Assembly (NCBI GenBank): GCA_965235115.1 | Contig: OZ249436.1 | Location: 15,936,001 to 16,000,000, forward strand | Length of the DNA: 64,000 nucleotides | Origin: Laetmonice hystrix | Lineage: Eukaryota | Reading direction: 5' to 3' | Part shown: positions 1 to 38,889 of the stretch, in pieces | Numbering within the stretch: the first letter of the stretch is position 1 | How the letters are laid out: every line of letters starts with the position of its first letter | The notes under the pieces: generated by a model | Told to the model about the DNA's origin: nothing | The model's database searches: none | What the model saw: the letters and a program-made list of their open reading frames with translations, nothing else | Program-made: the position numbers and the translations under genes

Positions 1-96
1 ATTCTCCGCGATTGGACGCAATAACGATACATAAAGAGTAAGCTGAACCTTCAAGATTCATTTTTTCCACATTTCTCCCAGAAACTATTGACTCAC

Positions 97-6000: not shown

Positions 6001-7188
6001 GTAGTTTGATGACCAGACTGTTTTTTCCCGTGTTTGGTGAACAATGTTGTTTTAAACATAGCCCCTCTATACGCGTGCAGTTTTTCTAATCGCCGACCTG
6101 GGGCCGTATAGCGAGCGGGGGAAAGGGCGAAGCAGGCGGTTGCCCTGGTTATTCTGAAAAAGGTACACCTTATACCGTTTTACAACGACTCTCGGAACCT
6201 CAAACTGTCACGAACAACTTTTGATGTATGTGCCCTGTAACTATTAGTTTCTACCATAGACCTAGGTCTATGTTTCTACGTACCCCTGTTTCTACCATAG
6301 ACCTAGGTCTATGTTTCTACGTACCCCTGTTTCTACCATAGACCTAGGTCTATGTTTCTACGTACCCTGGTTTCTACCATAGACCTAGGTCTATGTTTCT
6401 ACGTACCCCTGTTTCTACCATAGACCTAGGTCTATGTTTCTACGTACCCCTGTTTCTACCATAGACCTAGGTCTATGTTTCTACGTACCCCTGTTTCTAC
6501 CATAGACCTAGGTCTATGTTTCTACGTACCCCTGTTTCTACCATAGACCTAGGTCTATGTTTCTACGTACCCCTGTTTCTACCATAGACCTAGGTCTATG
6601 TTTCTACGTACCCCTGTTTCTACCATAGACCTAGGTCTATGTTTCTACGTACCCCTGTTTCTACCATAGACCTAGGTCTATGTTTCTACGTACCCCTGTT
6701 TCTACCATAGACCTAGGTCTATGTTTCTACGTACCCCTGTTTCTACCATAGACCTAGGTCTATGTTTCTACGTACCCTGGTTTCTACCATAGACCTAGGT
6801 CTATGTTTCTACGTACCCTGGTTTCTACCATAGACCTAGGTCTATGTTTCTACGTACCCCTGTTTCTACCATAGACCTAGGTCTATGTTTCTACGTACCC
6901 CTGTTTCTACCATAGACCCTAGGTCTATGTTTCTACGTATACCCTGTTTCTACCATAGACCTAGGTCTATGTTTCTACGTACCCCTGTTTCTACCATAGA
7001 CCCTAGGTCTATGTTTCTACGTACCCCTGTTTCTACCATAGACCTAGGTCTATGTTTCTACGTACCCCTGTTGACTTGACCTCCGGGTTTCGGTTTGGCT
7101 CTACCTGCGTGGACAGGAAAACTCGGCCTTGACGTAGAATCCGACTGAAGCTCACTCCATATCGAACAAAAACAGGCAGCGACGTCAT
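97..7188 (-). CDS. ALDH2: ALDH2-like mitochondrial aldehyde dehydrogenase, copy A (5' half; continues beyond window start)
   Basis: Exons 7066-7188, 4064-4168, 2001-2141, 1671-1750, 1111-1160, 498-559, 97-225. All are GT-AG and phase-compatible. Translation begins [28 protein letters not shown] (Arg-rich, presequence-like) and includes [41 protein letters not shown]. Confidence 0.92.
2724..3233. mobile_element. Possible TTAA-flanked non-autonomous DNA element
   Basis: ttaa|aggtaatc ... gatttcct|ttaa: short imperfect TIR. Confidence 0.4.
4338..4677. mobile_element. TTAA-flanked MITE (Kolobok-like)
   Basis: ttaa|aggtgctattcgt ... acgaatagcacct|ttaa: perfect 13-bp TIR with TTAA on both sides. 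Confidence 0.8.
6247..7069. repeat. 41-bp minisatellite, ~20 copies
   Basis: Unit gtttctaccatagacctaggtctatgtttctacgtacccct, nearly invariant. It contains the perfect 18-bp palindrome catagacctaggtctatg and abuts exon 1 of ALDH copy A. Confidence 0.97.
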
Positions 7189-14900: not shown

Positions 14901-17900
14901 ATTTTTAGATTCTGTACTTGTTTACCTGATGCACCACATAGTGAACTCGCCGCTACATGTACATCGAAAGTGTTGTTGAGAAAGGGACAAAAGCAGGAAA
15001 GATACTATAGAGTGACAACTACAATCGGTTTCCATTTATAGTAAATCAGATATTTTGGTGAAAGTGGCGCATAAAAAGACTGATAACAGTTAGATGAAGC
15101 ATCTAGCATGCAAAAAAACATAACTAATCTGTATGGAGAATAAGTGGCTGCCCTAAATAAGAGACATTGAGGGCTAGTAACTTTTGATCCATCATCCAAG
15201 TATAGCAAATTTTTGACGGGAAGGTTTAAACTATTGAGGAGTTTTAGATTTCAACTGTTCTTTTCCTGAGATCATACTATGAATCACATTATTTCGTTTC
15301 ATAGAGCATGTAAAACGGTGACGTTTCTTGGACTGTCAAATCACAAGACCGTGATTCCTTTCTGTCAAGGAAGAAGGACAATTAAAGCACAGTAGGCATA
15401 AAAGGATATTAGCTCGGAAAATCTGAAAGCTTTAATGAAACAGTACACAATAAGATCTACTTTACTAGAATTGCCATTTTCAGTATAAGCTTCACCCAGA
15501 TTAAAATTAGACTAACGCATTTAACATAGTAACAAATATATATTTATGAGGACGCACGGCTAAGTAATGCATGTCGCGCTCCATGAGGTCGGCCAGTTTA
15601 TAAAGCAGTCGGCCACGTTGTGCGGCGTCCATACGTCTCCACTCGGACCCATACTGAAAGGCATCTCGAGCAGCCCTCACCGCAATGTCAATGTCTGCCT
15701 TGAGAAAAAAAGTAAGATTAATGAACAACGCGGTACTTTTACTTCCCCTAAAGTTTCCAGCACCATCGGAGCCCATCCAAGACTGTCAGGGCTTGGTTGG
15801 GGAGGGGGGAGGGGGAGGGAAGCTGGCTGGACACTGCCACCTTCTGGTGCTTTTAAAGGGAGCTATAGTTGAAACAATGGTTAGGGGTCGATATGGCCTA
15901 CTGAAAGAGGCACGCTAGCCCGTTTCTTTGAATTTTATAAAAAAAAAATGTATCGTTGCACAGTTACATGCAAAGTTTACTTATATAGCCAAGTATGGAA
16001 TCCCCGGTTGCTGTCAGTGGAAACCAACTTGCCTACCGATGTTACCTCTTTTTAATTCAGAGAACATTATAAAAAAGACAAAGGGGCAACGCAATGACAT
16101 ATTTTGTAGACATTCTGCTATACTGAAGATGAGCATCTCAGTGTAGAACGAGGATATATTTTCATTTGACGCTGTGCTGCATTGTCAATACAATTATGAT
16201 GTATAAGGATCTGTTCCTTCTGCTCAACCATTATAAAAATAAAGGCGTTAAAAAAGATGTGACATTGTACCTTGTCTCCTTCAGCTACGTCACAGATCTT
16301 CTCTCCTGTTGATGGATTCACAGTCTCAAATGTCTTCCCACTGACTGAGGGCACAAATTCGTTGTTTATAAAAAGCTAGAGATCGGAGAAAAAAACCACA
16401 TGACCATAAATATTAAATTTGATATTATCAAGTAACAATTCTCATCTGGTAACAAGAGTGTTAGGCTTATAGAGCGACTTGAAAAGGCCAGTGAAAACAA
16501 TTAACCAGACGTTTAGTGTTCAAAAACTGTTAATTTCGTGTTGAACATATCAAAAATCTGTAAATTCCCACATTTTGGTGAACTCCAAAGGGTGAAACTA
16601 CAATTCAAGTGCTGCTATTAATAATAAGTACAGCCGGTAGTTTTTTTTGGGCAGAGGTGAATGTACCTGACACGGATAAAACTAATCACATCACTTGATC
16701 TGTTCATGTGTCAGTGAACTGATCAACCTTTCAGACACAGAATTCACCATGAGTACATTGGGAGTACGCCTATTCCCTCCTCGCTCTCACCATTTTGTAC
16801 TAACAAATCTAGTCAATGGCACGGAAATAAATGGAACATTTTCTAGACACTGACCTGGTGGAGTGACAGTTCTGCACCGTCAATGGGGCAGTTATTAGCC
16901 GATAGATCTATATATGTTTGTAGTAAAACGATTTTAATCTTGTTTATTGTCCCACCGTCTTCATATACAGTCCCACCTTTGAAAAGTCTATTTCAGAGGG
17001 ACGCGGATAGTACATGTACTTCAATATACTCGATATATTATGTCACCGGCTTTATTTTGAGACGCGTGGGGCGACAACCAATAGGCCGAATCTACGCAAT
17101 AGGCCTAGGCCTACTGGTTTAGTTGCCCTGCATGAAGAGATGTTATATAGGCCGCGCCCGTCATGTTGAGCTCGGCTCTACTATGTTTATCGTGATAGAT
17201 GAAGGCCTACAAAGATGGGGGCATGGCGGCTGCATGCGAGGCGCCTATAGATGTATAACCTATGTATCTAGTCTGAAACCCGCGCCGCTGAACTTAACTG
17301 TAGGCCCTATACAAGCAGCAGCAGGCGGTCTCAGGTCATGGAAGAACGGGGTGAGCGAGGTTGTAAACGCCGCCACAACTCGCCAGCTGCATGCATGCCA
17401 CGCTCTGGCCGTGCCATGTCTTGTGTATTTGTTACAACGCGCATCACAAAGTTTGTGCCATCAACCAGACCTCGTCTCGGAATGTATCACACAAGTCATA
17501 TTCAAAAGGAATTGCAACACTGAGACGGCTTGGGTCCCGGCCCGGAGCTTGGGGTAGGCACGGTTTAGGTCCCGGCCCGGAGCTTGGGGTAGGCTATGTT
17601 ATGGTGCCCTTTTTACGCGCTGAGCTAAGCAAATCATCATCTTCAAAGCTCCATGTAGGCCGAGGCTATATGACCAATCAGTCTTGATAGGCCTATCAAA
17701 ACACAAAGTAGTTCACTCCCCTACATGGTCATAGAAACCACCTGCTTGGATGCATTTCGTCACGATTCAACCTACTTCCACAACAGTGTGTTCAGGTGTC
17801 TTAAAATAAAAAACATCTTATATAGGTCTTAGAGTCTGTACGAAGGGAACCAGTTACTTATAGGCCTAGGCCTACCTGCCCTCCTTCAGTCTATACGTTC

Positions 17901-18785
17901 TTTTTTTTATTATTTATTATTAATCATCTTTAAACAGGATATCCCACTCAACTAATAGCGCCGTTACACTGGGGGTCCTGTACACAGAATGTACAGAGCA
18001 TATAGGCCTACATATACACACATAAGTAGGCCTAACAGCTAGGCCTAGGCCTACACATCGCCACTGACACCAGTGAAATCAGTGGCGGATCCAGGATTTC
18101 AGGAAGGGGGGCACCTTTTGGTGGATAGGACCTATAGGTTAGCCTATATCGGTGGCTCATTTTTGGGGTGTCCGGGCAGGGGTATAGGCAGAACTGAGAT
18201 AAGGGGGGGGTGTTCCCAACCGTAATATTATAGTAATTCATTTAGATCTAGGCTTAGATTTAGATTTAGTTATTTAATTAGTTATTAATTATCCGGAAAC
18301 CCGAAAACCCCCCTAGCTACACCCTTGCTGGGGGCCCTCCTATAAAGGTAATTATGGCAGAAGAAATTTCTCCCAAATCTTTCAACGAAATTCCCTTATT
18401 TTTATGCATGAAACATAGAAAACAGGCAAGACTTTGACAATAGAGGGGGCTGGCAGGCCCATAGGGGCCCTACCTAGGTGGCGGGGAGAGGGAGGGGATG
18501 AGCTTCGTCTGCATCAATGTTAGCCCTGCCTATAGTCCCGTTTACCATGTGAATTCACAAAAGAACCGCATTATAGATATTTAGGCCTGGGCATAGGCGC
18601 TGCACATCGATCGAACCGGGCCAAATGAGATTAACGGCCGGAGATAGGCGGTTGATACGTACCCCTGTTGCCTTGACCTCTGGATTTCGGTTTGGCTCGA
18701 CCTGCGTGGACAGGAAAACTCGGCCTTGACGTAGAAACCGACCGAGGTGTGCTCCTTGTCGAGCAAAACGGAACAGTGACGCCAT
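8952..18785 (-). CDS. ALDH2: ALDH2-like mitochondrial aldehyde dehydrogenase, copy B (complete, 14 coding exons, 520 aa)
   Basis: Exons 18663-18785, 16271-16375, 15558-15698, 14789-14868, 14535-14584, 13927-13988, 11715-11843, 11442-11555, 11151-11253, 10648-10832, 10110-10274, 9716-9873, 9212-9326, 8952-8984; total 1563 nt, open frame. Motifs [37 protein letters not shown]-terminus [10 protein letters not shown]. Confidence 0.96.
10395..10650. repeat. ~130-bp tandem duplication in a copy B intron
   Basis: gtttgactcatgataatttg...aagattacctg occurs twice (~10395-10516 and ~10525-10650). Confidence 0.85.
12422..12485. repeat. (CCCCA)n microsatellite next to a poly-G run
   Basis: About 13 CCCCA units; a shorter version is in copy C at ~28359-28385. 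Confidence 0.9.
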
Positions 18786-19559
18786 CGCTGAGGGCCTGTA
18801 GACGCTATATTTGACTTTAGCTGTCGTAGGTGTGGATGGACGGCACTTTAATCCGTCGGAAACACAGGTCTACTGCTGTTCCGCGCCTTCCCTTTCAGAC
18901 ACAGAAACGCAGTATCGTTTGTTGCCCACTGTCTGCAGCTGCTTCATGAATATTTATAGCCCCTGATAGCCTCGGGAATGAGGCCACCTGATTGACTGAA
19001 GCAGGCGAGCTCGGGCGCTGTCCGCTCGTGCGGCAGGGATGTAGCCCATGCAGGCTATGCGCGGACTGGAAGCAAGTCCCGTGCGAGGGCCTGGACCGTA
19101 TGGATTTGGCTTTCATTAGGAAGTAGGAAGTCGAATAGGCCTCTTGGGCCATGGGTTAGGGGCTTCGATCTCGGCCTACGGTAGGGCCTATAGCCTACTT
19201 CTTTTTAGGTTTCAACTGCATGAGAGTGCTGACTGGAGCCAGGCACATGATGGGGGGGGGGGGGGCGGCAAGACCCACTTAAAACGAAAGTAAATTCGCC
19301 AGTTTGTACAGGTCAAGGGTTGACTATTCGGGCACCAAATGTGTTCAAATCTTTTCTAACTTGTTTAGAATTTCACTTGATTGAAGAAAAGTATGGTAAA
19401 CCGTATACGTAATAGTCTATTTAAGCCCATACTGGGCAAGCAGGAAGTTGGCCGATCATCAAGACTGAAGACAAGATTGCGTTAAATAATTTTGCTGTCT
19501 TCTTAACAAAGTGTGCATTATGCAATGTGCGGTGAGACACACATAGGCACACATAAAAA

Positions 19560-20490
19560 TCTACAAATGCTGGACAAGTTACCATGCAAGTTGAAGGACC
19601 GGTAGTGTGGCATGGCGCATAGCTTGATGGATGCGAGGCCAGTTCAATTCAAGGATCTGGTTGAATTTGTGCAAGAAGAAGATGTCCTGTCTTGAAAATG
19701 TGTTATTTGGCAGGTTAAGCAGTCAGAATGAACACCAGTCAGGGTCAGGTTCACAAAGGCAAACAAGTCCAAAGGCAAGAGGGGCAAGGGCTTCACGTCA
19801 GCTGCAGGAATGTAAACGGATTGTCGCCAAGCTATATGAAAAAAATGCGATTTTTAACGTCTTAAGGATTGTTGCTGGAAAAACACAAGTCACCTGGTCA
19901 AAGACTGTCAGAACATGTTGAAATGTAGCATTAATTGTTAACTATCACATCCTGCAATTCTGCACGTGGACAATGAGTAACACGCAGGAAGTGGGAACTT
20001 CCTCGCCGGCAGCAGGGACTAATGAAGCATGAAGCCAATGTGGGATACGACGTTGATAGGCCCAGAGAGCTGACAGGAGTGCCAACCATCATGCCTGTCC
20101 TGTTGAGGAGTAACAGGCATTGCTGTGAAGACTGTGAATCATTTTTAGACATCGACAGGCACAGTTGAGTGTATAAACCTGACGGATAAAAAAACAAGTT
20201 GACAGCAGTGTGATAAAAGGCTTGGAAGTCATGGACATGGAGGGAAGAACCGTGATACACCTTCCGCCCATATAGGCCTACACAGAAAAGAATTCCCGTA
20301 TCAAAAGGCGACATCGTGAGGAATTGTGACAAAGTCGTATTTGAACGGACTGAAGTTACCTAACATCGAAGCAGATATTGGCCTGTCAATACGAAATAAT
20401 GGGCCAAAGGCGTGAGAACCATGGCAAGTAATAATTAAGGGGAAACGGACCATGCTGTACGGCCAGCATTAGGATTTGCCTCTGTGATAG
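19560..20490 (+). mobile_element. Degenerate BEL/Pao LTR-retrotransposon gag/protease-region remnant
   Basis: Frameshifted patches such as VIHLPP..RIPVSKGDIV resemble the Pao polyprotein. Colinear with the clearer remnant at 35.0-37.1 kb. Confidence 0.45.
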
Positions 20491-21102
20491 GCCTCGCAAT
20501 ACTCGGCCTATTGCCAAAGCTACACAAATGAGAGCATTTTAAAACGCGCAGAATGGGATGCTATAGCGCACATAGCCAATCATTTCAAATGAAGTTTTGC
20601 CTTTACCTTCAGCCATTGAGTCCAATGAATTTAGCTCAAGTCCTCCTACAAAGCAGATTCAGGTGATTTTTCAAACGAAACGGGCACTTCTAAATCGTCA
20701 CGGCCGGCGGCCATTTTAAATAAATAAAGGAAACAGCTATTATCTAAGAAGGGGGCCTAGATCTCGGGCCATAATGGAGGAGTGCTTGCGCTCCTTGTGT
20801 GATGATATGCTCCCCTACTGGCCTTCAGTGCGCATGTGCATTAGGACTAACAATATTGCAGGCAACGGAAATCAAACTGCTCGGTTCACATTTTCAAACG
20901 TTTGTTAAATATATGGGATAAAAAACAAAAAAAAGTGAGCAGTGGAGCGGTTTGATGAGAAGGAATACACCAATTCGATCGAACGGCATGATTCACGAAG
21001 AATTGTCCACAGCGGTGAGTTCGTATTGGAGGTATACCGGCGATGTCAGTCCCTATTTGCTGGCAACTGCACTCTAAAAACTAAAGAGTTTCAGGGAGCT
21101 CG

Positions 21103-21620: not shown

Positions 21621-22015
21621 CCCAAGATGGTGTTTCCAGGAGCAATGTTAACAAATCACTTAAAAAGTCATCATAATTAGGTCCCTGTTTGACATTCCGC
21701 TCTAGTCATCGACACAAAGACTGCATTTATATTATTGTCAATTTAGCTCACGGTCGCATTAACCGGCTGTCACAGGTATATGACACGCGGGGTAAAGAGT
21801 CAAAAAAAGGGCAGGTAAGAGTCAACACGTGATCAATCAAACTGACCCTTTTAAGGGTTCAAATAACTCTTTTTCTGTAAAATACAGTGAACTCGTTGAA
21901 AGAGTTAAACACAACCCCTGATATTCAGTCTTGATGATCAGCTGATATATTCGACCTATTTCGTGCCTCTTTCGGTACTTGTATCTGTATGGGTAGATTG
22001 CCTTGGGTTGCCTAT

Positions 22016-22129
22016 CTCAGTTGAACCAGTAAAGGCCACTTTATCTACATCCATGTGCTCTACCAGTGATGCTCCGGCTGTCGACCCAAAGCCAGGGACG
22101 ATGTTGACCACACCAGGTGGAAATCCAGC
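22016..22129 (-). pseudogene. Orphan ALDH exon (homolog of the 114-nt FTGSTE exon)
   Basis: Translates [38 protein letters not shown]. Acceptor AG intact, donor mutated (GAG|ataggc). No neighbouring ALDH exons found. Confidence 0.88.
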
Positions 22130-22671
22130 CTAAATACACCAACAATTACACTATAAACTAGCGCCGATGTGGCTTGGGCCAACATCTTGTATCCCATCCC
22201 CTGGCAATGAAAATCATAGATACATTATCATGTTAGACTACTTCCATGTCATCGATAGGCCCGTAGATCGAAAGAGCATACATTATTACTTCCTATATAT
22301 GACCTCAATAATTAATATTGGTCATCTATCAATGACGTCATTGTCACGTAATACGTCACCCTACATAATTGATTTTGTTATCTTTTGAAAGAACATGTTC
22401 CTATTATAGCTTCAATAGTAACCATAGCTCTACCTGGCCCCCTTTCAGAGTTATAGCTGTTTCAATAATATTGGTGATCTATCAACATCGATTTTCATTT
22501 TCATTTCGATTTTGGAGACCCCTCTGCTGAAAATCCTGGGCCCGTGGCTGTATTTTGAGTTAGCCTAACAATAATTTTTGTCAATTCTTCAAAAAGAAAG
22601 AGTGGGGATAGGGCCTATATAGAGGGAGGTGCCCACGCCAGGCGGCGCCAGGCAGGCCCTTCAGTGCTAGC

Positions 22672-23519
22672 GTATACCGCCCGGCAATCAATTTTTTCTT
22701 TCCTATAGCTATTTCTTCTTTCCTACAGCTATATTCTCACTGTGATCTCACCATTTGATCTCTCACTGTGAGATCATTTTGACATCTCTCTGACATAAAA
22801 CAGTACACATGTACCAATATATTGGGCTTTCCTTAGAAGAATACGATCTTACAGCAATCTCATAGCGATCTAACCATGATCTCAATTTCTTCTCACACTG
22901 TGAGATCATTTTGACATCTCTCTGACATAACACTACCAATATATTTTTGAAATGACGTTGTCGCACCACCTTCCTGGGTTCCCACAGGGACATTCTAGAA
23001 AAAAATCCTGGCTTAACCAGTTCTAACCATTGCGTGGGCACGCTGTAGTATCTCCTGTGCCAGTAAAGCACTGACGCTTAACACCTCACTATTGATGTTT
23101 CCCGTCGGAAATCCAAATTGATGTTTTCTATACTGGGTTGTTTAAAAAAAACACACAAAATATCATCCCTACGTCCCACTCCCTGTATTGTTCTTTTCAC
23201 AATTAGCGAAAAAATAAAGCGTAATTTTACACAATGAATAGCTCTTTTTGAATGATATGTGAATTATTTGAAGTCGCTAGAAGTTCACCTATTGACTGTG
23301 TTTCGGACAGTCTAGTCAATCTCAATGATAACAGCGCCATCACCTGAGATTTACATGATGTCAAGGTGATGTCGGAATTCTATAACATTGTGACATCAGA
23401 AAGGTCTCAATATTTGTTCTCACATAGTGAAGTCATTATGAGATTGCTGTGAGATCAATGTGTGATCTTACCAGCTGAGATTTACGTGATATCAAGGTGA
23501 TGTTGGTGATGGCGGGGTA
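22672..23519. mobile_element. Probable non-autonomous DNA element with subterminal tgtgagatc/gatctcac repeats
   Basis: Repeated gatctcac/gtgagatc motifs in both orientations; degenerate termini taccgcccggc ... ggcggggta. Confidence 0.45.
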
Positions 23520-24975
23520 AAGAGTCCAAATTTGCAGGTTAAGATAATGAGATAGTTACACGTCAAGACATAATGGCTTACATCAAAAACTTAAACGTTG
23601 CATATTATTGTCTAAACTGGAGAGAATGATAGTGTGATCCGTTATATACAAGCAAGGAAATAACGTCCTTCGACCGGAGAATAAGGTATGGAAAGGTAAA
23701 GATGTGACCGTGTAAAGCAAACAATTATCTCTTGCTCCAGTGACTCCAAAATGCAGACATGGGCTGTTAGGTTACATAAGGCCTTACACTACATAATGTA
23801 TACCCACTGAAATGGAGAAATCTAATGGAATTCAACATTCTAGTTGCCTGTTGTCGATATGAAGCGAACTTCGTAATCTATGGCTGGTTGTTGGCCTGCT
23901 AGTCCATCTGGCGGAATATAGATATAAAATGATCAATCCCCCACGGCCGTATCACTCCCACACCATAGCGTTACGAAAACGAAAGTCCTTCCACCGGACT
24001 ATTCGGCAGCCTACTGACTTACTGACTCTGCGCACAGCGAGTGGACTGTTTCCGGTCTATTGACCTGCATGACTAGAACAGCCAATGAAATTTATCGGGC
24101 GATGAACCGATTAATTTCATTGGTTGTTGAAGTGGCATACATACTGTTGGCCTAATTAATACATATTGATTGACCTTGAAAGGTCCCACATAACCACTAC
24201 AGGTTTGATTAATAAACTAGCAGCGTGATAGCCGCAGTTGCGCGGAGTCTGGGTGCTTATTTTTTAAATCTATTTTTTCAATGAAGGGGGAGGCGCCCCC
24301 CACTCCCCTCTATTTAACCAAAGACAAAGTCACGACAAATCCATATCTAGTGGCGTTTATTTCCATTGGCAAATTGACCCTAAATCCAGAATGTTTTGCA
24401 TTCTTTGCAAATGGTTTGCAAAATGTAGAGGAAAAATGTAAATATACAATCAAAATCGAACATATCTGTCTCGTAATCTTGTGGTACTGCTTTTCTAAAC
24501 CCCAATTATACACCTAGCTATGGCAAGACTATTTCGGCATAACCTACGGTATTGAAAAATACTTCGTCATTTCTGTGGAAATATCTCCTTGACAAAAAAT
24601 AAACGTTTTGTAGATAAATCATTTATGGCAAGACAATTAGTTACAACGGATAATTCCTGATACTGTTATTGTCTGATATCCGGTGAAGAACAATATGTTT
24701 ATATTTATGGCATCGACTGGACTTCTCTGAACGAGAAAATCACCATAAAAATTATATGGGGGTTAGTTCGCCACATTAATGATTGCGCATTAATGCGCCC
24801 CCAGCCCCACCCGTATATGACGGAGCTATTTTATGCATAAGCGAAATTTCAGCACAGGTGTAAAAGTCTGATGATCTTCATGGATATCTATTCTGAGTTG
24901 CACAATGCACTCTCTGCTAACGATATAGTGCAGATGGCAAGGAAGACATTTTCCCTAGCTTTACCACTGAGGTCC

Positions 24976-27900
24976 CTATGAATTCTTCTGTGGTACCTTA
25001 ATGGTTACCTGAAATAGAGAATATCATAAGTCAATAATCATTTATAACTTTTCTCATTTGAGGAATTAAAAATGTTAATCATAAATTTCCGGCGGGACCT
25101 TGGTTTGTGAAGAACACTCAGAATATACACGTTATGAAATGTCTGAATTGGTGTCAGAGCAGAGCAAGGCGGTCAGATGGATTTACAGAGGATTGTAAAT
25201 TCACTCATGTCAATGGAAGTGTTATAGTCACCCACCGTTTTGACCTCAGTGTAAGCCTCCAGCCCGTACTCTCCTAACTCACGCCCGTTACCGGACATCT
25301 TGTAACCGCCAAATGGAGCGGCAGCATCAAAGGTATGGTAACAGTTGATCCTATCAAAGATTTCAAAGTCACTCAGGAACCATATTATTAACAATAATAT
25401 AGTACTCTACAGTAGAGTGCATTATAACACAGGAAAATGCAATACGATCTGGTAAGGAGTCATTTGCATAAGACGAAGTCGAGAGTGGCATCCTGCATTT
25501 CCCTCAGCTTGGCGAGACCAATGTCAAATTGATAATGGAAATCAAAATTGACAGATTTGGATTAGCAAGGATTGACAATGTCAGATATTCAGAGTATCCC
25601 AGGGTATCTATTATGTCAGCACTTAAATTCTCCAGATCGCAGTCAGATTTTTTCATTACTAGTGTCTTTTAAGATGTTAGGGACCGCTGTGTCGTGGATA
25701 TTCCGTGAATAACTGCCATTTGTGAGCTTACCAGACTGTCCCCGCGCGGACGCCATGAGAGATTTGCATGGCACGATCAAGGTTGGTGGTAAAGACAGCT
25801 GCTGCCAGACCATACACAGTCTTTGCTGCTCTTTCCAACACTTCTTCTGTCGTTTTGAACTTCAGGATCTGCATCACTGGTCCGAAAATCTGAAGGAACA
25901 CCAATCGTCGCAAAATATTTTAAAGGCGTACAGAATATAGTCTAGGTGTATACTTATGATTTAGGACTATCCTATGAAAAAATATACCAGACAATTTCCT
26001 TCAACCTGCAGCTGAATCTAGCACGAAAAACATAAGTTAAATCTGAAGATTTCTCGAACAGCAATTTCTTCTTCACGCAAATTTAGATACATCTAGTTAA
26101 TAAAAAATCACATTCTAGATGCGGTAGTAAACCAGCATAATCAATTATCTTGACACTCGCCTCCTCATTCGCAATAACCATGTTGTCCTGGACGTCGGAG
26201 AAAACTGTTGGTTGGATGAAATAACCACGGTCACCTACGGCATTGCCGCCCACACACAGTTTGGCGCCTTCTTTCTTTCCTTGATCAATGAATCCAAGTA
26301 CCTTGTCGAACTGCTCCTTACTCACCTGAAAACCATCCAAATACGTACCATGACGGGTTTGGCAGATATAGTAACCAATGCTAACATTAACATTGTGCCT
26401 ATAGTTGTTGGCCCTTTAGTCCATAGCTCAATCTAAGAAAAAAAACGTAAATGTCAGGCACGACAAAAGTTACTTCATACAAATGTATTTTCATGGCAGT
26501 AATTATCAATGAATAGACGAATGCCTTTTGCCGCCGCCAAATTAATAATTAGCCTACAGTACAATTTGGCTGCGTTGACATTTGAGTACATTGTAGTTAC
26601 CTGCGGGCCCTGTTCATTCCTGGCATCAAACGGATCACCAACTGTACGAGTTTTGGCCCGTTCCACACTTCGTTCCACAAATTCGTCATAAATCTGTTCC
26701 TCGACAAAGATGCGAGTTCCACCACAACAACATTGGCCCTGGTTGAAGAAGAGGCCAATGTGGGCCATCTCGATCGCGTGGTCCACTGAAAGACACACAA
26801 ACGTTAGAATGCAATAACTTTTAGAAAAGATTCTGCCACTTTATGGCAAGGAGTTATTGTTTGGATGCTTGATCCAATTCAGGACGCGCGAGGCCGTCAG
26901 AACCGTGGGGGTTACGCCCCCCCCCCCCCCACACACACACACAATCCGACAAGAACATGGATAACTGCAGACCAATCGTAAATACGATGTTAATATTCTT
27001 TGGACTGGTATATCCTTCTTTGAAATTTTTATAATCCTACTACTATAAAATTATTTGTAGAGGAGGAGGGATACAACCCGTAGAGCTATCAATACTTACT
27101 GTTGGCATCAGCTAGCACAATGTTGGGACTTTTTCCTCCGAGCTCCAGGGTCACTTTCTTCAGGTTGGATTTTGCAGCCATACTTGCAATTAATTGGCCA
27201 ATCTATATATTTTAAAAATGTTATCAATTTATAATTCCATGAAAATAACCAGAAAATCGTTTTTTGTTGAAGGATTCAAAAGAGGAACCTATAGTTACGA
27301 TAGAGTAGGCGTACTTATAAATAACTAGGTATTACTTCAAGACTAAATGTAAATTTTCTCCCGCAGTGATTTACTATCACAAGTTGCCCTACCTCGGTTG
27401 AACCTGTAAAGGCCACTTTGTCCACATCCGTATGCTCGACCAAAGCTGCTCCCGCTGTTGGCCCATAGCCTGAGATGATGTTGATCACGCCAGGCGGGAA
27501 ACCAGCCTAACCACACCAACGCCAGATATTATCTTAAATAAATTCTTTAATCACAATATATCGCTCATATTTAGCTAGACTGCAGTCTGAAAACGTCACA
27601 GTGTCGAGGTCTCACAACACAAAATTTTAGCACACAGTCATTTCTTTTTGATACAATTCACTCACCTCAGCAGCAAGAGATGCTACATAGAGAGCGGTGA
27701 GTGGGGTCTGTTCAGCAGTCTTCATCACCACAGTATTGCCCAGAGCTAAGGCAGGCCCAAACTTCCATGACTGCATCACCAGGGGGAAGTTCCACTGTAA
27801 CATATTCCATACCTTTCAGGACCCTGATAAGTGAAGTAGTTTTATTGTCATTGAGAACTGGGAATTTTTCGCTTGGATTACCAATTCCCTTTAATTCAAA

Positions 27901-30900
27901 CATTTGTTTTTGCACATAGATCTTTATGTTTATGTACACTGTCGAGATCCCCTTGCCGGTGATTCTGGCCTGACTTTGTCTTACTCTTTTTACCCAGTGC
28001 TGACCTATAGGCCTATATTTACACATGTAACCCACCGAGACACAAGGAAACTGTCGACACACCCTCTGACGTGTATCTTTACGGTGTACAAGTCATAGAG
28101 GTTCGCATACTGGTTCAGTATGACAAGACGTGTCGTTCTTCTACTTTGGAATGTGGTATTTTTTATAGGCCTAGGCCTATATAGGCCTACACACAATCGT
28201 TGCAAAGGTTGAATGCCTATACGTCATTCCTCTCTCATTTCCAGGTGAGAGACGCCAGACAAGAAACTGGGACATCGACCTGAGCCCGTCACGGTAAGGT
28301 TGCTTGTAGTGGCTGCCTGACTCAGGGGCGCCGCTGCTGGGGAGAGGGGGGGGGGGGTCCACCCCACCCCACCCCACCCCACCCCAAAAATAAGGTCTCC
28401 CCAGCCACTCTAGCTAATGGAAGGTCTATAGCCGATGATAAGGTAGGCCTAGGCCTAATTCGGCTTATTTGTCTTTAGGCCTAGATATATAGGCCTATTA
28501 TTAGGCCCCAAAAAATGATGTGAATTTTATTTATACATAATGATAGGCAATGAAACGAAAGTAATCGCATCTTGATTTTTGAAATAGGCCTACCTGTTAA
28601 ACTTTAACACATAGAAAAGTGTGTAGGCCTACACTGCTATTTTACAGCTTTTTTTAGATGCAAAAGGCCTAACACATATCAGGGTTGCCCCCTCCCAAAC
28701 ATTGAAATAGGCAGCGGCGCCCCTACATACACTGTACATCAGGAGTGGGTCTGATGAGAATACAATGTACATTGAATCTGGACTTACCGGAATAATCTGG
28801 CCACAAACACCCACTGGTTCATGGCGGGTGTATGTGAAGTAATCCCCAGCTGTAAACAATGAGTTGTTCATATTATCAAAGGCATAAACTTGTGAATGAC
28901 GCGACATAATGTCTAACCGGTTATCGATTTTCCAAAATTGTTGGATTGCTTGACAGTCTAAAACGTTTGATCAGTTGTCTTACTCAAATATCGTTCCAAT
29001 TAAGTGCATGCCTCAACTTACATCTGGCTAAAACGAAATGCTTCTAGAAAGACGGAAATTATGTTTGCCGTTTTATATTTCGTCCATTACAAAAAAACTA
29101 CAAGTTAGAAAAATAGGATAAACGCCTCTTTTAGAAAATGCAATGAAATTAAATCGAACATGGGTATCAACATGGGGATTCAATAGATTTATATCCTCTA
29201 CAACTGTAATTAAATGCTTGATAGGTTTTCTCAAATTCATTTTACTTAAAAGCATTGTGCTCCAATTTGCTAAAGAAGAGATAGGAAAGAGTAGAAAGAT
29301 TTTTATGGAAAACAAGCATGCGTTTCTCAGACAAATACACATAAATACTTGAACCCAAACCTTCATTCCCACCTGAGTTGGTAATCATACACTGACTTGT
29401 TACTGACAAATGCTGTCCTTACCAATTGGAATGGTCTTTCCGTGGTGTTTATCAGCCCAGCCTGCATAGTACCTTTAAACAGGAGTGTATCCATGGATAC
29501 AGAGTGCAGCTCCAAGGCAACTTATACTAACCTCAAAAATACCAGGAAGTGAATACAAATTTCTTCCACGGTAAGTTGAATTTATGGTACCAGTAACTAG
29601 GATTGCCGGGTGTTTACCTTGAACAGGAATTTTGATTTCCATTTTGACATAGTTAAATATTTATATCCACTCTCACCTGATGCAAGCAATTGAGAGGGGG
29701 AGATCTGCTGCCAACGCAATATGGTACGGCTTTCCATTGTCCAAAGTCTCCAAAGACTAGGTAAAGATAGGCAGATATTGCACAATGTATTTTTAGATTC
29801 TGTACTTGTTTACCTGATGCACCACATAGTGAACTCGCCGCTACACGTACATCGAAAGTGTTGTTGAGAAAGGGACAAAAGCAGGAGGGATACAATAGAG
29901 TGACACCTACAATCGGTTTCCATTTATAGTAAATCAGATATTTTGGTGAAAGTGGCGCATAAAAAGACTGATAACAGTTAGATGAAGCATCTAGCATGCA
30001 AAAACATAACTAATCTGTATGGAGAAAAAGTGGCTGCCCTAAATAAGAGACATTGAGGGCTAGTAACTTTTGATCCATCATCCAAGTATAGCAAATTTTT
30101 GACGGGAAGGTTTAAACTATTGAGGAGTTTTATATTTCAACTGTTCTTTTCCTGAGATCATACTATGAATCACATTATTTCGTTTCATAGAGCATGTTCC
30201 TTTCTGTCAAGGAAGAAGGACAATTAAAGCACAGTAGGCATAAAAGGATATTAGCTCGGAAAATCTGAAAGCTTTAATGAAACAGTACACAATAAAATCT
30301 ACTTTACTAGAATTGCCATTTTCAGTATAAGCTTCACCCAGATTAAAATTATACTAACGCATTTAACATAGTAACAAATATATATTTATGAGGACGCACG
30401 GCTAAGTAATGCATGTCGCGCTCCATGAGGTCGGCCAGTTTATAAAGCAGTCGGCCACGTTGTGCGGCGTCCATACGTCTCCACTCGGACCCATACTGGA
30501 AGGCATCTCGAGCAGCCCTCACCGCAATGTCAATGTCTGCCTTGAGTAAAAAGTAAGATTAATGAACAACGCGGTACTTTCACTTCCCCTAAAGTTTTCA
30601 GCACCATCGGAGCCCATCCAAGACTCTCAGGGCTTGGTTAGGGAGGGGGGAGGGGAGGGAAGCTGGCTGGACACTGCCACCTTCTGGTGCTTTTAAAGGG
30701 AGCTATAGTTGAAACAATGGTTAGGGGTAGATATGGCCTACTGAAAGAGGCATGCTAGCCTGTTTCTTTGAATTTTATTTTAAAAAAATGCATCGTTGCA
30801 CAGTTACATGCAAAGTTTACTTATATATAGCCAAGTATGGAATCCCCGGTTGCTGTCAGTGGAAACCAACTTGCCTACCGATGTTACCTCTTTTTAATTC

Positions 30901-33900
30901 AGAGAACATTATAAAAAAGACAAAGGGGCAACGCAATGACATATTTTGTAGACATTCTGCTATACTGAAGATGAGCATCTCAGTGTAGAACAAGGATATA
31001 TTTGCATTTGACGCTGTGCTGCATTGTCAATACAATTATGATGTATAAGGATCTGTTCCTTCTGTTCAACCATTATAAAAATAAAGGCGTTAAAAAAAGA
31101 TGCGACACTGTACCTTGTCTCCTTCAGCTACGTCACAGATCTTCTCTCGTGTTGATGGATTCACAGTCTCAAATGTCTTCCCACTGACTGAGGGCACAAA
31201 TTCGTTGTTTATAAAAAGCTAGAGATCGGAGAAAAAAACAACATGACCATAAATATTAAATTTGATATTATCAAGTAACAATACTTATCTGGTAACAAGA
31301 GTGTTAGGCTTATAGAGCGACTTGAAAAGGCCAGTGAAAACAATTAGGCCTAACCAGACGTTTAGTGTTCAAAAACTGTTAATTTCGTATTGAAAATATC
31401 AAAAATCTGTAAATTCCCACATTTTGGTGAACTCCAAAAGGTGAAACTACAATTCAGAACGGCCTGGTGATAATTTTGTATACTTTTTGGTCAAGTGCTG
31501 GTATTAATAATTGAGTACAGCCGGTAGTTTTTGTTGGAAGAGGTGAATGTACCTGACACGGATAAAACTAATCACATCACTTGATCAGTTCATGTGTCAG
31601 TGAACTGATCAACCTTTCAGACGCAGAATTCACCATGAGCACATTGGGAGTACGCCTATTCCCTCCTCGCTCTCACCATTTTGTACTAACAAATCTAGTC
31701 AACGGCACGGAAATAAATGGAACATTTTCTAGACACTGACCTGGTGGAGTGACAGTTCTGCACCGTCATGGGGCAGTTAGCCTATAATAGATCTATGTTT
31801 GTAGTAAAACGATTTTAATCTTGTTTATTGTCCCTCCGTCTTCATATACAGTCCCACCTTTGAAAAGTCAATTTCAGAGGGACGCGGATATCATTGTACT
31901 TCAATATACGCGATATATTATGTCACCGGCTTTATTTTGAGACGCGTGGGGCGACAACCAATAGGCCGAATCTACGCAATAGGCCTAGTCCTATAGGTCC
32001 TACTGGTTATAGGCCTATAGGCCTAGGCCTATAGGCCGCGCCCGTCATGTTGAGCTCGGCTCTACTATGTTTATCGTGATAGATGAAGGCCTACAAAGAT
32101 GGGGGCATGGCGGCTGCATGCGAGGCGCCTATAGATGTATAACCTATGTATCTAGTCTGAAACCCGCGCCGCGAACTTAACTGTAGGCCCTATACAAGCA
32201 GCAGCAGGCGGTCTCAGGTCATGGATGAGCGGGTGGCGAAATCTTTTTTCCCACATTAGTTCTGGACCCCCCATTATCATACAGCCAATCAGAAACAGGC
32301 CACACATGGCTATGGAATACCGGCGACGACATGCGAGATGCGAGACAGTGTGTTTGGGTTAGGGTAAAGGTTAGGCCTAGGGTTAGTGTTAGTTTTCATA
32401 GCCCAAAATTATTGTTAAATAGGCACTAATTGATGAGCAGGGGATGTGTCAATAAGAAACATTCACTGACACTGTTCGGTCCCATATCGCGAGCGATAGA
32501 GTCTGGCGTTCACTGATTGGCTGAAGCTAGAATGGGGTCCGGAACTAATGCGGGAAAAAAAATTTCGCGAGCGGGTGAGCGAGGTTGTAAACGCCGCCAC
32601 AACTCGCCAGCTGCATGCATGCCACGCTCTGGCCGTGCCATGTCTTGTGTATTTGTTACAACGCGCATCACAAAGTTTGTGCCATCAACCAGACCTCGTC
32701 TCGGAATGTATCACACAAGTCATATTCAAAAGGAATTGCAACACTGAGACGGCTTGGGTCCCGGCCCGGAGCTTGGGGTAGGCACGGTTTAGGTCCCGGC
32801 CCGGAGCTTGGGGTAGGCTATGTTATGGTGCCCTTTTTACGCGCTGAGCTAAGCAAATCCTCATCCTCAAAGCTCCATGTAGGCCGAGGCTATATGACCA
32901 ATCAGTCTTGATAGGCCTATCAAAACACAAAGTAGTTCACTCCCCTACATGGTCATAGAAACCACCTGCTTGGATGCATTTCGTCACGATTCAACCTACT
33001 TCAGTGTGTTCAGGTGTCTTAAAATTAAAAAACTTATAGGTCTTAGAGTCTGTACGAAGGGAACCAGTTACTTATAGGCCTAGGCCTACCTGCCCTCCTT
33101 CAGTCTATACGTTCTTTTTTTTATTATTTATTATTAATCATCTTTGAACAGGATATCCCACTTAACTAATAGCGCCGTTACACTGGGGGTCCTGTACACA
33201 GAATTTACAGAGCATATAGCTAATTATAGGCCTACATATATACACACATAAGTAGGCCTAACAGCTAGGCCTAGGCCTACACATCGCCACTGACACCAGT
33301 GAAATCAGTGGCGGATCCAGGATTTCAGGAAGGGGGGGGGGGCACCTTTTGGTGGATAGGACCTATAGGCTAGCCTATATCGGTGGCTCATTTTTGGGGT
33401 GTCTGGGCAGGGGTGTAGGCAGAACTGAGATGGCGGGGGGGGGGGGGTTCCCAACCGTAATATTATAGTAATTCATTTAGATCTATTTAGTTATTTAATT
33501 AGTTGTTAATTATCCGGAAACCCGGAAACCCCCCTAGCTACACCCTTGCTGGGGGCCCTCCTATAAAGGTAATTTTTGTTTAAGAACGCCAGAGACGTGT
33601 TTCTGAACATAGATCTAGAGGTCTAATATGGCAGAAGAAATTTCTCCCAAATCTTTAAACGAAATTCCCTTATTTTTATGCATGAAACATAGAAAACAGG
33701 CAAGAGTTTGACAATAGAGGGGGCTGGCAGGGCCATATAGGGGCCCTACGTAGGGGGCGGGGAAAGGGAGTGTTAAATGGCCTAGTCCCGTTTATACCAT
33801 GTGAATTCACAAAAGAACCGCATTATAGATATTTAGGCCTGGGCCCGGTTTTTTTGTTTACTTTTCCACCGTAAGCAAGGGTGAGCTGAGCTGAGCAAGG

Positions 33901-34303
33901 GTGAACAGAAGCTCATGCTCACCGTTTTGCTCACTGTTTTCGTTTTTTCGGGTGTTTTTCCGCGAGCTTGCTCACCATGAGCACGCCTCATGGAAAAAAA
34001 GCAACCCAAAAACCACGAAAACGCTGAGAATGAGCTCATGCTCACCCTTGCTCAGCTTAGCTCAGCCTTGCTCACGGTGCAGTAAACAAAAAAAAACGGG
34101 CCCTGCGGGCATAGGCGCTGCACATCGATCGAACCGGGCCTAATGAGATTAACGGCCGGAGATAGGCGGTTGATACGTACCCCTGTTGCCTTGACCTCTG
34201 GATTTCGGTTTGGCTCGACCTGCGTGGACAGGAAAACTCGGCCTTGACGTAGAAACCGACCGAGGTGTGCTCCTTGTCGAGCAAAACGGAACAGTGACGC
34301 CAT
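24976..34303 (-). CDS. ALDH2: ALDH2-like mitochondrial aldehyde dehydrogenase, copy C (complete, 14 coding exons, 520 aa)
   Basis: Exons 34181-34303, 31114-31218, 30400-30540, 29677-29756, 29423-29472, 28788-28849, 27666-27794, 27393-27506, 27100-27202, 26601-26785, 26161-26325 (GC donor), 25732-25889, 25236-25350, 24976-25008. Same exon sizes as copy B, open frame. Confidence 0.94.
32236..32568. mobile_element. 333-bp MITE with 9-bp TSD (Mutator-like), present in copy C only
   Basis: TSD gagcgggtg at 32227-32235 and 32569-32577. ~35-bp TIR gcgaaat..cccacattagttctggacccc. Empty site in copy B at ~17345. Confidence 0.88.
33841..34103. mobile_element. Foldback MITE in intron 1 of copy C only
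   Basis: gggcccggtttttttgtttac ... gtaaacaaaaaaaaacgggccc with long internal inverted arms; absent at the homologous copy B site (~18590). Confidence 0.8.
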
Positions 34304-34532
34304 CGCTAAGGGCCTGTAGACGCTATATTTGACTTTAGCTGTCGTAGGTATGGATGGACGGCACTTTAATCCACTTTGTTGCCCACTCTCTGCAGCTGCT
34401 TCATGAGTATTTATAACCCCTGATAGCCTCGGGAATGAGGCCACCTGATTGACTGAAGCAGGCGAGCTCGGCGCTGTCCGCTCGTGCGGCAGGGATGTAA
34501 GCCCATGCATATGAAGACCATAAGGTGACATC

Positions 34533-34721
34533 ACCCGCCACTCGCCCCGCTACTCGCCACTCGCCCCGCTACTCGCCCGGCCCCCGCTACTCGCCCCGCC
34601 ACTCGCCCCGCTACCCGCCGGTTAGGGTTAAGGTTAGCGTTAGCGTTAGCAGGGCGAGTGGTGGGGCGAGTAGCGGGGCGAGTGGCTAGTAGCTGGGCGA
34701 GTGGCGAGTGGCGGGGCGAGT
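34533..34721. repeat. Foldback of (ctcgccccgcta)-type arms around a telomere-like loop
   Basis: Left arm of actcgccccgc repeats, loop gttagggttaaggttagcgttagcgttagc, right arm of gcggggcgagt repeats. Confidence 0.8.
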
Positions 34722-35059
34722 CAGAACATGTTGAAATGTAGCATTAATTGTTATCTAAGAAGGGGGCCTAGATCTCGGGCCATAATGGATTCGTGCTTGC
34801 GCTCCTTGTGTGATGATATGCTCCCCTACTGGCCTTCAGTGCGCATGCGCATTAGGACTAACAATATTGCTGGCAACGGAAATCGAACTGCATGCTCGGT
34901 TCGCATTTTCAAACGTCTGATTTGTTAAATATATCAGATAAAAAAAACAAACAAAAAAAGTTAGCAGTGGAGCGGTTTGATGAGAAGGAATACACCAATT
35001 CGATCGAACGGCATGTCAGTCCCTGTTTGCTGGCAACTGGGACGATACTCAGTCAACAA

Positions 35060-36400
35060 TAGGATGGGCTGTAAATAGACCCCTCAATCAATCATTGAAC
35101 AGGTCTTCAATCAAGAGTTCCGTGAAAGGACAAGAGACGATAAAGCCAAACATTTCGTTGAAGACAACAAGTTCATGGGCCTGCACGTGTGCTTGCAGCC
35201 AGTACGAAGTTTGAGGACGGTCACTATTAAATTCCGTTACCTTTCAGAGACCCGGATGTTAAACGGGCTCATTTGGTCTAAACCCACAAAAATTGCTCTT
35301 CCAAAGAGCGTTGATTGTTTCTATATAGTTTAGACACATTAAAAACTATTTGCACTATACCGTAGAGACGTATTTAAGCGCCAATTTTCACGAGATTCAG
35401 AAATGTTTTGACAGTTCATTGTCTCAAAGGGCCTGCCCACTGAAGGCACGTGGCGTGTGTTTACTGACGTGATACTTAGACTTACACCGCGCGCATGCGC
35501 GTCATGTTTGTTTTGGACTGAAATGGCTCCGAGGATGGACCAGCCACTCGATGTAGGCTACAGTAGTTGTATACGGGGCGGTGCCCGACGCTGTCACTCA
35601 GAGAAGACGCGAGTGCCCTGACCTACAACCGTATTAGCTATAGATCTATGCATTTGGTTGAATAGAATTAGACTCACTGCATACGAATTGGAATTAAGTC
35701 GGATGTCACAAATTTGTTCATGTAAATAGCCTACTTATTGACCACCCAGGGACAGATGCAAGGTATATGTCTGAAAGTCATAGATAGATTTTGCTGAAAG
35801 GATGCCAGATTCAGAGTTGGAATGTGAACCAGGCAAAATGTGGTATATACCACATGACGGAGCCTACCACCCCCGGAAGGGCAAGATTCCCGCAGGTTTG
35901 GACTGCGCAGCACAATTTTGGGGCAACTTGTGGCACTTATGGCTGACATCGAAGTTTTCAGAGGTAGACTGTGCCAAACAACTACAATAACATAGATTAT
36001 CAACGATTCCTATGATGGTCGGGCAATGACACAAGTAAACCAATGAAGAAATACCTTAAGAATGTCTTTGGCGATGTTGTCAACACAGTCCACTCCTAAA
36101 AAACGACCTGCTGAAGTCGGTGTATAAGAAATACGTTTGGTGACAGATCTGGTATATGTGCAGATTTCCAAGTAGGATCCGATTTTCTGTGGCAATCGCT
36201 GAACTACTGGCCTGACAGTAAAGCCATGTGCTGCTGGGAGACGACGCAGTCTTCCATGAGTAGGACTAGGAGGGCGGTTGGGCGAATCAACAATATCGAA
36301 GGAGGCAACTTGCCAAGGCATGCACACAATGATCTTGCCGAAGGTAATACACGTAAGCCTATCGATGCTTATCCTCAGGCACATTCACAAACGCAAATTC
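35060..36400 (+). mobile_element. Degenerate BEL/Pao retrotransposon pol remnant
   Basis: KFEDGHY*IPLPFRD (~35210), WYIPHDGAYHPRKGK..DCAA (Pao RT-adjacent motif), LMADIE, FGDVVNTVH..DLLKSV, YW.DS; interrupted by stops and frameshifts. Integrase-like RPLTPNMLL resumes at ~37085. Confidence 0.75.
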
Positions 36401-36479
36401 ACGATTTATATATATAAATATGTCTGAATTCGGCAATTTGGTATACATCCAAATGATCCCCTTTAAGATTTTAATAACT

Positions 36480-37060
36480 TATTAAATCCTGATCAAGGAG
36501 GCTTCAGAAAAGCCCTATCTACAATCTCAACCATCTTAAAAATAACAGATGATAACGGCCACAAATAACTCAGAAGCTACGCTGGCAGTATTTATAGACT
36601 TTTAAAAGACATTTGACACTGTTAATCACGATATACTTTTGAAAAAGCTCTCATGTTTTGTCTCTAAAAATGCAGTTGCATGGACGCGAGATTACTTATG
36701 TGAAAGAACACAATCTGTCTACGTTAACAATCTGGTGTCTAATTTATTGACTCTCTCCTGCGGTGTACCACAAGGATCAATTTTGGGCCCACTTTTATTT
36801 CTGTGTTATGTCAACGATATCTCTTCTTATGCTGTAAACTCTTCTGTGAAACTCCATGCTGATGACACTATGATGTATATTTCCGGATCTGACTTCGATA
36901 AAATGACCCTACTTCTTCAAGAAGACTTGAATATCCTGACTATAAATACTAAGAAAACTAAAATAATGGCCTTTGCTTCCCCACAGAAAGTAAAGATCCA
37001 CCCGAGTCCTGTACTTAAAATAGCAAATACTTTTTCTTCTGTGGAGTATACTCATAACGA
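36480..37060 (+). mobile_element. Non-LTR retrotransposon reverse-transcriptase fragment (CR1/L2/Jockey-type), degenerate
   Basis: QGGFRK..ST, AVFIDF*KTFDTVNHDILLKKL, GVPQGSILGPLLFLCYVND, LHADDT. Confidence 0.88.
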
Positions 37061-38889
37061 CGTCTGAGGACGCGCTCGATTCAAGACCGTTGACCCCCAA
37101 CATGTTGCTCCGAAAAGCAACATTTTTTCCTCCCGTAAATTCTGGGTCAAGCGAACCGTCCCAAATCGTGATGTTGTTTCCCTTTTGACGGTTATTTCTA
37201 TGGTTTCCAGGGCAAACCGTCGTGACGGTCACGTGGGACAAATGAACCAGTCAGATTGCCTATAGCTGCACCAAGTGTATAATATTGAGTTGTCAGGGAG
37301 ACCGGGGACAATCGGAATATTTCAAACGGGAGAATTTTCCAATACGTCTAGAGTGTTACAGTCGTCTTCTATACCTAGGTCAGCGTGAAAAAAACGTAGA
37401 CATCTATACTGTCCATTTAGAAAATGGCTAAATTTACGCCTAAAAGTAGGCTACATGAAACATGAATGCCGTCCAACACAAACATATACTGTGCACAGAT
37501 GGTTGGAATTAATTATCAACAATGAGCAGGTGCCTGGGTGGTATTGTATTCAATGGTAACATGTGTTACAGTCATCCCAAGATGCACCATGCAGTCTGAC
37601 ATTCACGTTTCCCCGCATGAACGAAGATGGCCGAAGATTGCCGAAAGGACTCGAGTGTGAGAATGTCTGACATTTCCATGCCCCCCCTGCATGATTTGGT
37701 ATATGCTAAGCCTAATCCAAAAGGATTACTCTCTAAAAACAAATCGGTTAATCTAACCAATATATTGGTTAAATTTAACCATTTTTTGCTGGAATGAGTC
37801 AATATTTTGGTGGAAACAACCAATCCAGATTTTTTGACTTAATACCCTATCAGAATTGGTAGATGAAACCAATTATTTGGTTAAGCATATACCATCTATA
37901 AGGTTATGACGTGGTTTGCCGCGCTCGACATAAAGCTATACTTGGATTGTTGCAATCGCCCAGTGTTTGTCCCCGTACTCACCCACCGTCCCATGCATAC
38001 ATGCACCTGCCCCCCCCCCCCCCCCCCCCCGAAGAAAAATCCTGGATCCGTAACTGATATCCGTTGAGTGACATTCAGAGGTCAGCACGTCTTGGTGGGC
38101 AGGTCAAGTGGTCAGATAAAGTTGAACATTAATTGTCGTAGGCCCTATATAGGCTAAAGCATGCTAGTGATAGGCATGTACATGTACCTATGCTATAGGC
38201 CTATAGTATAGAGGGGCGGGCGGCCCACAGGCCAGTCTCGAGTGATGCGGCTGTCACAAAAGGACACAATCCGATGAAGAGTTAGGCAATCAGGTAAAAC
38301 AGGTTAGATCTAAGTAGCAAGGCTGTGGGATCGGGATAAAGATACCGGTCCGAATCTGTCAGGTCAGACCAAGGCCAACGTAAGACAAGCTGGTCTCCCG
38401 AGTGTCACGAGGCCTGTCCAACATAATAGCCCTAGTCGGGAAAAGCTACAAGCCGACTCCAGTTTACTTGCGAGCTTTAAAGACCTTTCAAGGGTGACGG
38501 TTGGTATAGCAGCTCAGTAGAGATCTATTTTGATGAAATAACGTCACATAAGCTTAATTATATAGGGATAGGTCCTGATCCTGTAGCCCATTGCCTTCCT
38601 GTTAAATAGGGCTAGACCTAAAGGCCAAGTTAGGTAGGCCTATAGAGCAGACGACGGTCGAAGGGGCACTAAATCTCGTCTTTCCTTAAAGTTAACCTAG
38701 AAGTGTAGTCTGCTCGTAAAATGGCGATAACTTTAGTATAGGCCTATGTGAACATAATTTCCCGATAGATTTATAGGCCTAGGCATACCGACTACTGTGG
38801 AAACCCAAAGGAGGCTAAAGGAACATTCCTAAATAGGAATTCCCCCTTCTCCGCCAAATTTCTTTCCGTTTGCCCCGCTAGATTAAAGG

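Follow-up and report, generated by a model that had tools for sequence, protein, structure and literature searches.

Does a tandem array of ALDH2 genes in Laetmonice hystrix include a young copy whose substrate pocket has been changed by selection, or do the few differences between its copies reflect decay, gene conversion or assembly? The stretch analysed, hereafter the window, covers 64 kb of one contig and consists of animal DNA free of N throughout. Self-comparison and exon mapping revealed three ALDH2 copies (A, B, and C) arranged in tandem, all on the minus strand. Copy C (24976-34303) has 14 exons (34303-34181, 31218-31114, 30540-30400, 29756-29677, 29472-29423, 28849-28788, 27794-27666, 27506-27393, 27202-27100, 26785-26601, 26325-26161, 25889-25732, 25350-25236, and 25008-24976, minus strand) and encodes an intact protein of 520 aa, according to an exon-by-exon model with which the joints of a spliced contig and a Pfam Aldedh match (PF00171) on exon 10 agree. 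Its 1563 coding bases and 26 splice sites contain no stop, frameshift, or lost splice site; the donor of intron 11 is GC, versus GT in copy B. Copy B (8952-18785, minus strand) also comprises 14 exons and encodes an intact protein of 520 aa, whereas only exons 1-7 of copy A (1-7188, minus strand, start at 7188) are present, as this gene runs off the window. By comparison with B, copy A is an older paralog, with unalignable introns and partly homogenised exons. Its intron 1 contains a tandem array of an 82-bp unit (6247-7072), which starts where exon 1 ends and seems to duplicate the last part of this exon together with its donor site.

The block that includes copy C (23522-35015) matches the block that includes copy B (7500 to about 20990). 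Upstream of copy B, about 1.7 kb (19052-20740) lie between two shared promoter-side blocks, where copy C has about 240 bp. Between B and C we found the relic exon 8 of a further ALDH2 copy (22016-22129, minus strand), with an open frame, a donor changed from GT to AT, and 12 silent and seven amino acid codon differences from copy B; we considered that it might be an alternative exon and rejected this, given its position outside both genes and its AT donor. Upstream of the array are a reverse-transcriptase fragment (36606-37064), a gamma-glutamyltranspeptidase-family gene (44000-48500, plus strand), and an ENGase (GH85) gene (52900-61000, minus strand).

By every sequence test run, B and C are members of the ALDH2 family. 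The top PDB hits for exons 7, 10, and 13 are human and bovine ALDH2, and residues N169, K192, E195, E268, C302, E399, F401, and F465 are all present in both copies, as is the small-channel signature formed by L124, F459, and C303 (L is the commonest residue at site 124 in homologs). A quick IQ-TREE search on 36 chosen rows, which included only two ALDH1A-like rows and for which the careful search was incomplete, placed both proteins within a group of 21 rows (SH-aLRT 97), made up of ALDH2-like sequences that are spiralian or unnamed. The nearest homolog is 80% identical, and neither the homolog nor the representative searches returned an ortholog above about 80% identity, the window's own proteins not being among the matches. 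At the N terminus, a basic extension of about 25 residues without acidic ones can be seen, which may be a mitochondrial presequence.

Over the two 520-aa frames, B and C differ at exactly seven amino acid codons and ten synonymous ones. The exon-by-exon models thus bear out the count of seven residues given in the sequence-only reading, and the four codons on which it had focused are all in place; the alignment to human ALDH2 for which it had called, made with single exons (7, 10, and 13) against 500-residue human ALDH2 PDB chains, showed that its numbering of L173, F292, A304, and D457 was right. In human numbering and from B to C, the seven changes are G45R, L173V, F292I, A304G, S338R, L356F, and D457H, all on the minus strand. 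At L173V (27777-27779, CTG to GTG), both A and B have L, and V occurs in 2 of 174 close homologs. For F292I (26757-26759, TTT to ATT), I was seen in none of 176 close and in 2 of 125 distant homologs. A304G (26721-26723, GCT to GGT), two residues after the catalytic C302, replaces an alanine found in 176 of 176 close homologs, with G in 1 of 127 distant ones, and D457H (25335-25337, GAT to CAT) introduces a histidine that occurs in none of 173 close and in 18 of 126 distant homologs. G45R (31147-31149, changed letter 31149) lies outside the pocket; A and B have G there, and R is found in 1 of 172 close homologs. The other two changes, S338R (codon 26621-26619) and L356F (26292, in exon 11), lie respectively at the edge of and inside a diverged tract that spans introns 10-11.

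At each of the four focal sites, copy B matches the consensus (for 292, 304, and 457 as judged from 176 full-length homologs of 239 fetched). Because A shares B's letter at 45 and 173, and the consensus of the homologs agrees with B at 292, 304, and 457, C is the derived copy at these five sites. Positions 173, 292, and 457 vary widely among distant ALDHs (128 of 150 distant representatives), so that three of the changes occurred where ALDHs normally differ, while A304G affects a site that is almost never Gly. We take L173, F292, and D457 to be residues that contact Alda-1 in crystal structures; literature searches for Alda-1 contacts in one-letter form and for ALDH1B1 Glu292/Asn457 gave no match. 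A304 is a residue of the catalytic loop and is not documented as channel-lining in the literature examined, where a search for Ala304 together with Cys302 gave no match either.

We then asked how the changes are placed relative to the substrate tunnel, using literature residue lists in place of 3D distances. The reference set contained 28 tunnel residues, that is, all those named in the available text of two ligand-binding papers (PMC8908493; PMC10650273). In this test, which is not fully blind because the papers were found via the residue names of the finding itself, and in a window chosen from a very large scan, four of the seven changes (173, 292, 338, and 457) fall among the 28 residues (hypergeometric p 2.5e-4; 4.6e-4 when weighted by mutational opportunity, and 5.6e-4 when also weighted by site variability). 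With our own core subset of 17 residues, three of seven changes are included (p about 1e-3), and three of five when the tract is set aside (p 3e-4 to 6e-4). Adding A304 to the core, a post hoc choice, gives four of seven in 18 residues (p about 5e-5) and four of five outside the tract (p about 1e-5 to 1.5e-5). These five changes outside the tract consist of the four focal sites and of G45R, the only one outside both pocket and tract. The earlier claim that the changes lie preferentially at substrate-channel residues therefore stands for 173, 292, and 457, which are among the named tunnel residues, and does not extend to A304, which belongs to the catalytic loop and is in neither list.

The number of changes says less than their location. 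The C branch carries five amino acid and one or two silent changes, giving a dN/dS of about 0.9-1.9 from few changes, compared with about 0.23 for the whole gene. If C evolved neutrally, 3.8-9.8 amino acid changes are expected, and five are seen. Split by location, four changes are seen in the pocket versus 0.16-0.43 expected (P 1e-3 to 3e-5), and one outside it versus 3.6-9.4 (P 0.13 to 0.0008), so that the pocket-only rate on the C branch is above neutral. The evidence for selection is thus where the changes are, and their number is compatible with neutrality. In addition, four of the five C-derived changes are transversions between C and G (31149, 27779, 26722, and 25337; p about 1e-4, post hoc), which is the rarest class among non-coding B/C differences (8 of 167). 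Selection for particular residues would account for this excess, as would an older donor; we have no other explanation for it.

Information on expression came from contigs of four public runs of one sample (X1-X4), which were aligned to positions 21640-38000; X1-X3 are DNA, and the kind of X4 is unrecorded. Run X4 yielded a contig of 2124 nt with 10 listed joints, which we regard as a spliced transcript because its joints are at modelled exon edges and it is absent from the DNA runs. This contig reads F292, A304, and D457, as B does. It shows eight differences from C in exon 10 and four in exon 11, where B shows four and seven, and therefore represents either another allele or a mosaic path. 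The 63 letters at its start do not align to C, and their length is that of a B leader segment missing in C: the 63 nt of this segment in B (18855-18917) correspond to only 2 nt in C (34373-34374, minus strand), at a point that follows a TATA-like box by about 30 nt, so that C lacks 61 nt of B's likely 5′ leader. C is not the main form in the X4 library; contigs drop minority forms, so the absence of a C transcript is not implied. A lack of expression of C had been named beforehand as an argument against retuning: the only spliced contig is indeed B-like at F292/A304/D457, which is not proof of silence.

These observations bear on the alternative that survives best, although we consider it rather improbable, namely that C is a redundant copy, or a rare allele, under relaxed selection and that the clustering is a chance pick from a large scan. 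Five amino acid versus one or two silent changes match neutrality, both the invariant A304 and the conserved G45 have been altered, the 5′ leader of C is shorter, the spliced contig is B-like, and a fourth copy beside C has already decayed to one relic exon. Against this, random placement would put three of five changes in the 17-residue core with p about 6e-4, and four of five with A304 included with p about 1.5e-5, and no disabling lesion has accumulated in the coding bases or splice sites of C.

Gene conversion has probably left its marks on the array. B and C are about 30% diverged in introns 10-11, versus about 2% (0-3%) elsewhere. In C, the diverged tract covers introns 10-11 and exon 11 (25890-26600, minus strand; counterpart in B, 9874-10647) and is likely a gene-conversion tract. 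Exon 11 shows seven B/C differences; the tract holds L356F and five silent codons, and its edges hold S338R and two more silent codons. Because DNA contigs follow C at introns 10-11, it is probably B that carries the converted tract, and L356F and S338R are probably not changes of C's own. Between A and B, exons 2, 3, 5, and 6 differ by only 1.6-4%, yet the introns are unalignable; identical runs reach up to 102 nt (p 0.004 by chance). Exons 1, 4, and 7 differ by 17%, 20%, and 8.5%, respectively; exon 4 of copy A (1671-1750, minus strand), which encodes the mouth helix, differs from that of B at seven amino acids, including 116, 119, 120, and 127. This pattern makes exon-level gene conversion that spared the pocket exons a likely history for A and B.

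Such activity opens the way to a second alternative, which we regard as unlikely: the pocket residues would be older than the B/C duplication and would have been copied into C, then a chimera, by short conversion tracts from another paralog, either the 3′ half of A or a copy beyond the window. Beyond the signs of conversion between A and B (1.6-4% in exons, the 102-nt run) and between B and C (about 30% in introns 10-11), the eight exon 10 differences of the spliced contig from C, versus four for B, indicate that further sequence types exist, and an older donor would also explain the rare C/G class of changes. However, A has L173 and G45 and so was not the donor of V173 and R45; moreover, the nearest other B/C difference is 37-95 nt from the focal sites, with no silent difference adjoining them, and four separate tracts would be needed.

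The low non-coding divergence between B and C, 167 of 7945 aligned bases (2.1%) outside introns 10-11, raises the question of whether they are two loci or two alleles. The B and C blocks have different flanks and a unique junction without N. Contig depth over C, taken from the six longest listed pieces per run and compared with two upstream pieces, was 1.85, 1.74, and 2.28 times in X1-X3, and that of an A-type exon 7 contig was 0.7-1.1 times that of the upstream pieces; these depths are a rough guide and cannot be read as copy numbers, and the assembled animal may not be the source of the runs. In the contigs, 28 variant letters were classified (of 40 shown and 316 in total): 14 match B, nine match A, and five match neither, all five being in C-type introns 10-11. 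Given the roughly twofold depth, the third sequence type, the different flanks, and the unique junction, B and C most likely arose by a genuine tandem duplication, and the runs contain at least three sequence types. A collapse of the two copies to alleles on read mapping had been set out beforehand as a result that would refute retuning, and, as far as contigs tell, B and C do not look like collapsed alleles. The contigs have B's letter at 26759 and 26722 in all three DNA runs, and at 25337 in the two runs with coverage there. Collapsed contigs would be expected to hide variants derived in C in this way, so that C's letters are neither confirmed nor refuted; at these three positions they rest on the assembly alone and may be fixed or private to one chromosome. 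We consider it very unlikely that the distinctive letters of C, or the pair as a whole, arose in assembly, through consensus errors or through the placing of two haplotypes one after the other. In favour of such an artefact, alleles differ by about 2% in many marine invertebrates, none of the contigs listed has C's letter at 26759, 26722, or 25337, and the C/G excess is unexplained. Against it, the depth, third sequence types, different flanks, and gap-free unique junction all argue for two loci, ancestral letters shared by B and probably A are expected to win in collapsed contigs, and errors would not target the pocket.

We therefore rank adaptive retuning first, ahead of relaxed decay, then conversion import, and then assembly artefact. 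On balance, we favour the interpretation that C is a very young tandem ALDH2 duplicate whose pocket may have been changed by selection for an altered aldehyde range. It is supported by the enrichment of changes in the pocket, by the intact catalytic and cofactor residues, and by the finding of only one change outside both pocket and tract, and is further favoured by the high variability of 173, 292, and 457 among distant ALDHs, which is typical of specificity sites. Copy B would keep the ancestral job while selection favours the changed range in C. With smaller side chains at two positions, L173V and F292I would make the funnel wider in its middle and at its mouth. The mouth would also lose a negative charge through D457H, and the loop next to C302 would become looser through A304G. 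The combined effect would be a preference for aldehydes that are bulkier or acidic, with the ALDH2-type neck and bottom (F459 and C303) retained. With exons exchanged by conversion, pocket differences would need selection to persist; the older copy A probably illustrates what comes later, its mouth helix and cofactor loop having diverged while the scaffold was homogenised. C may be a fixed or a segregating allele, and may be expressed at a low level or in other tissues.

Several observations temper adaptive retuning. The classical signature sites 124, 303, and 459 are unchanged in C, and A304G or G45R could equally impair the enzyme. The sequence-only reading had proposed a rapid retuning after duplication, which is only partly supported: where the changes fall speaks for selection on the pocket, but their count on the C branch fits neutral drift; A304 is otherwise invariant (176/176) and R at 45 is rare; and the leader is shortened, the only spliced contig is B-like, and C's letters may be fixed or private. 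As for the dietary toxin or specialised metabolite suggested as the selective agent, no evidence here points to either, or to any named substrate, and a literature search on polychaete bromo-aldehydes found nothing linking them to an ALDH.

A broader scenario, which we put forward tentatively and hold to be possible rather than probable, is that the array has been caught while diversifying: conversion would maintain the similarity of the scaffold exons as selection drives the copies apart in their chemistry, B being the ancestral NAD enzyme, C, at only about 2% divergence, a pocket variant with four changes, among them an A304G that is hardly ever seen in the family, and A a mouth-helix variant in which E195Q would allow NADP. 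In exon 7 of copy A, E195Q (144-142) and P198T (135-133; together 133-144, minus strand) alter the adenosine-ribose, cofactor-selecting loop, where 174 of the 175 close homologs have E. According to section 7 of one review (PMC8160307), the adenosine ribose is bound by Glu195, and NADP is disfavoured when the residue at this site is acidic. Copy A may thus be a candidate NADP-accepting mitochondrial ALDH2 paralog. If the diversifying array is real, the B/C pair is a natural five-residue experiment on a first ALDH2 specificity shift. If C is active and different from B, the pair isolates the handful of substitutions behind such a shift in a medically familiar enzyme. A route through 173, 292, 457, and 304 would, if true, bypass the three textbook channel signatures, and the array would be a well-defined example of how functional divergence begins in the presence of gene conversion.

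Our literature searches, to which subscription literature was mostly out of scope, found no paper on a comparable spiralian ALDH2 array, and a search for invertebrate ALDH2 tandem duplication with selection gave no ALDH2 paper among the matches listed. Pocket retuning in ALDH1/2 duplicates has already been described in flies, beavers, plants, and amphioxus, so that the B/C pair extends rather than changes current views. According to the parts of the literature available to us, switches in channel size have often followed the duplication of ALDH1/2 genes (Sobreira et al. 2011, as reviewed in PMC8160307; PMC5087895). Like these, B and C are duplicated ALDH2-type enzymes whose differences are concentrated in the channel; unlike them, they retain the signature residues 124, 459, and 303, have changed at 173, 292, 457, and 304, and are only about 2% apart. 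Further parallels are the Drosophila Aldh duplicates and the Aldh polymorphism of D. melanogaster (Fry et al. 2008; Chakraborty and Fry 2015, 2016, as summarised in PMC5087895, PMC7560327, and PMC8571616), in which natural channel substitutions in an ALDH2 ortholog shift specificity in duplicates or between alleles. There, as far as these summaries go, the channel is restricted and the effect was functionally tested, whereas here the changes would widen it, a prediction made from sequence alone. The beaver Aldh1a1 expansion, in the portion of the report consulted (PMC8656434), is likewise a recent multi-copy ALDH array with modelled substrate-channel differences and some pseudogenes; it involves ALDH1A1 instead of ALDH2 and about 10 copies, with expression and activity measured. 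Lastly, divergence islands can persist under gene conversion, as in the red/green opsins described in the sections seen of one review (PMC3924837). As in these islands, tandem copies have here been homogenised while differences were kept at functional sites (exons 4 and 7 between A and B); in contrast to the opsins, whose introns are homogenised, the introns of A and B are unalignable and only exons would have been converted, conversion being read here without an outgroup species.
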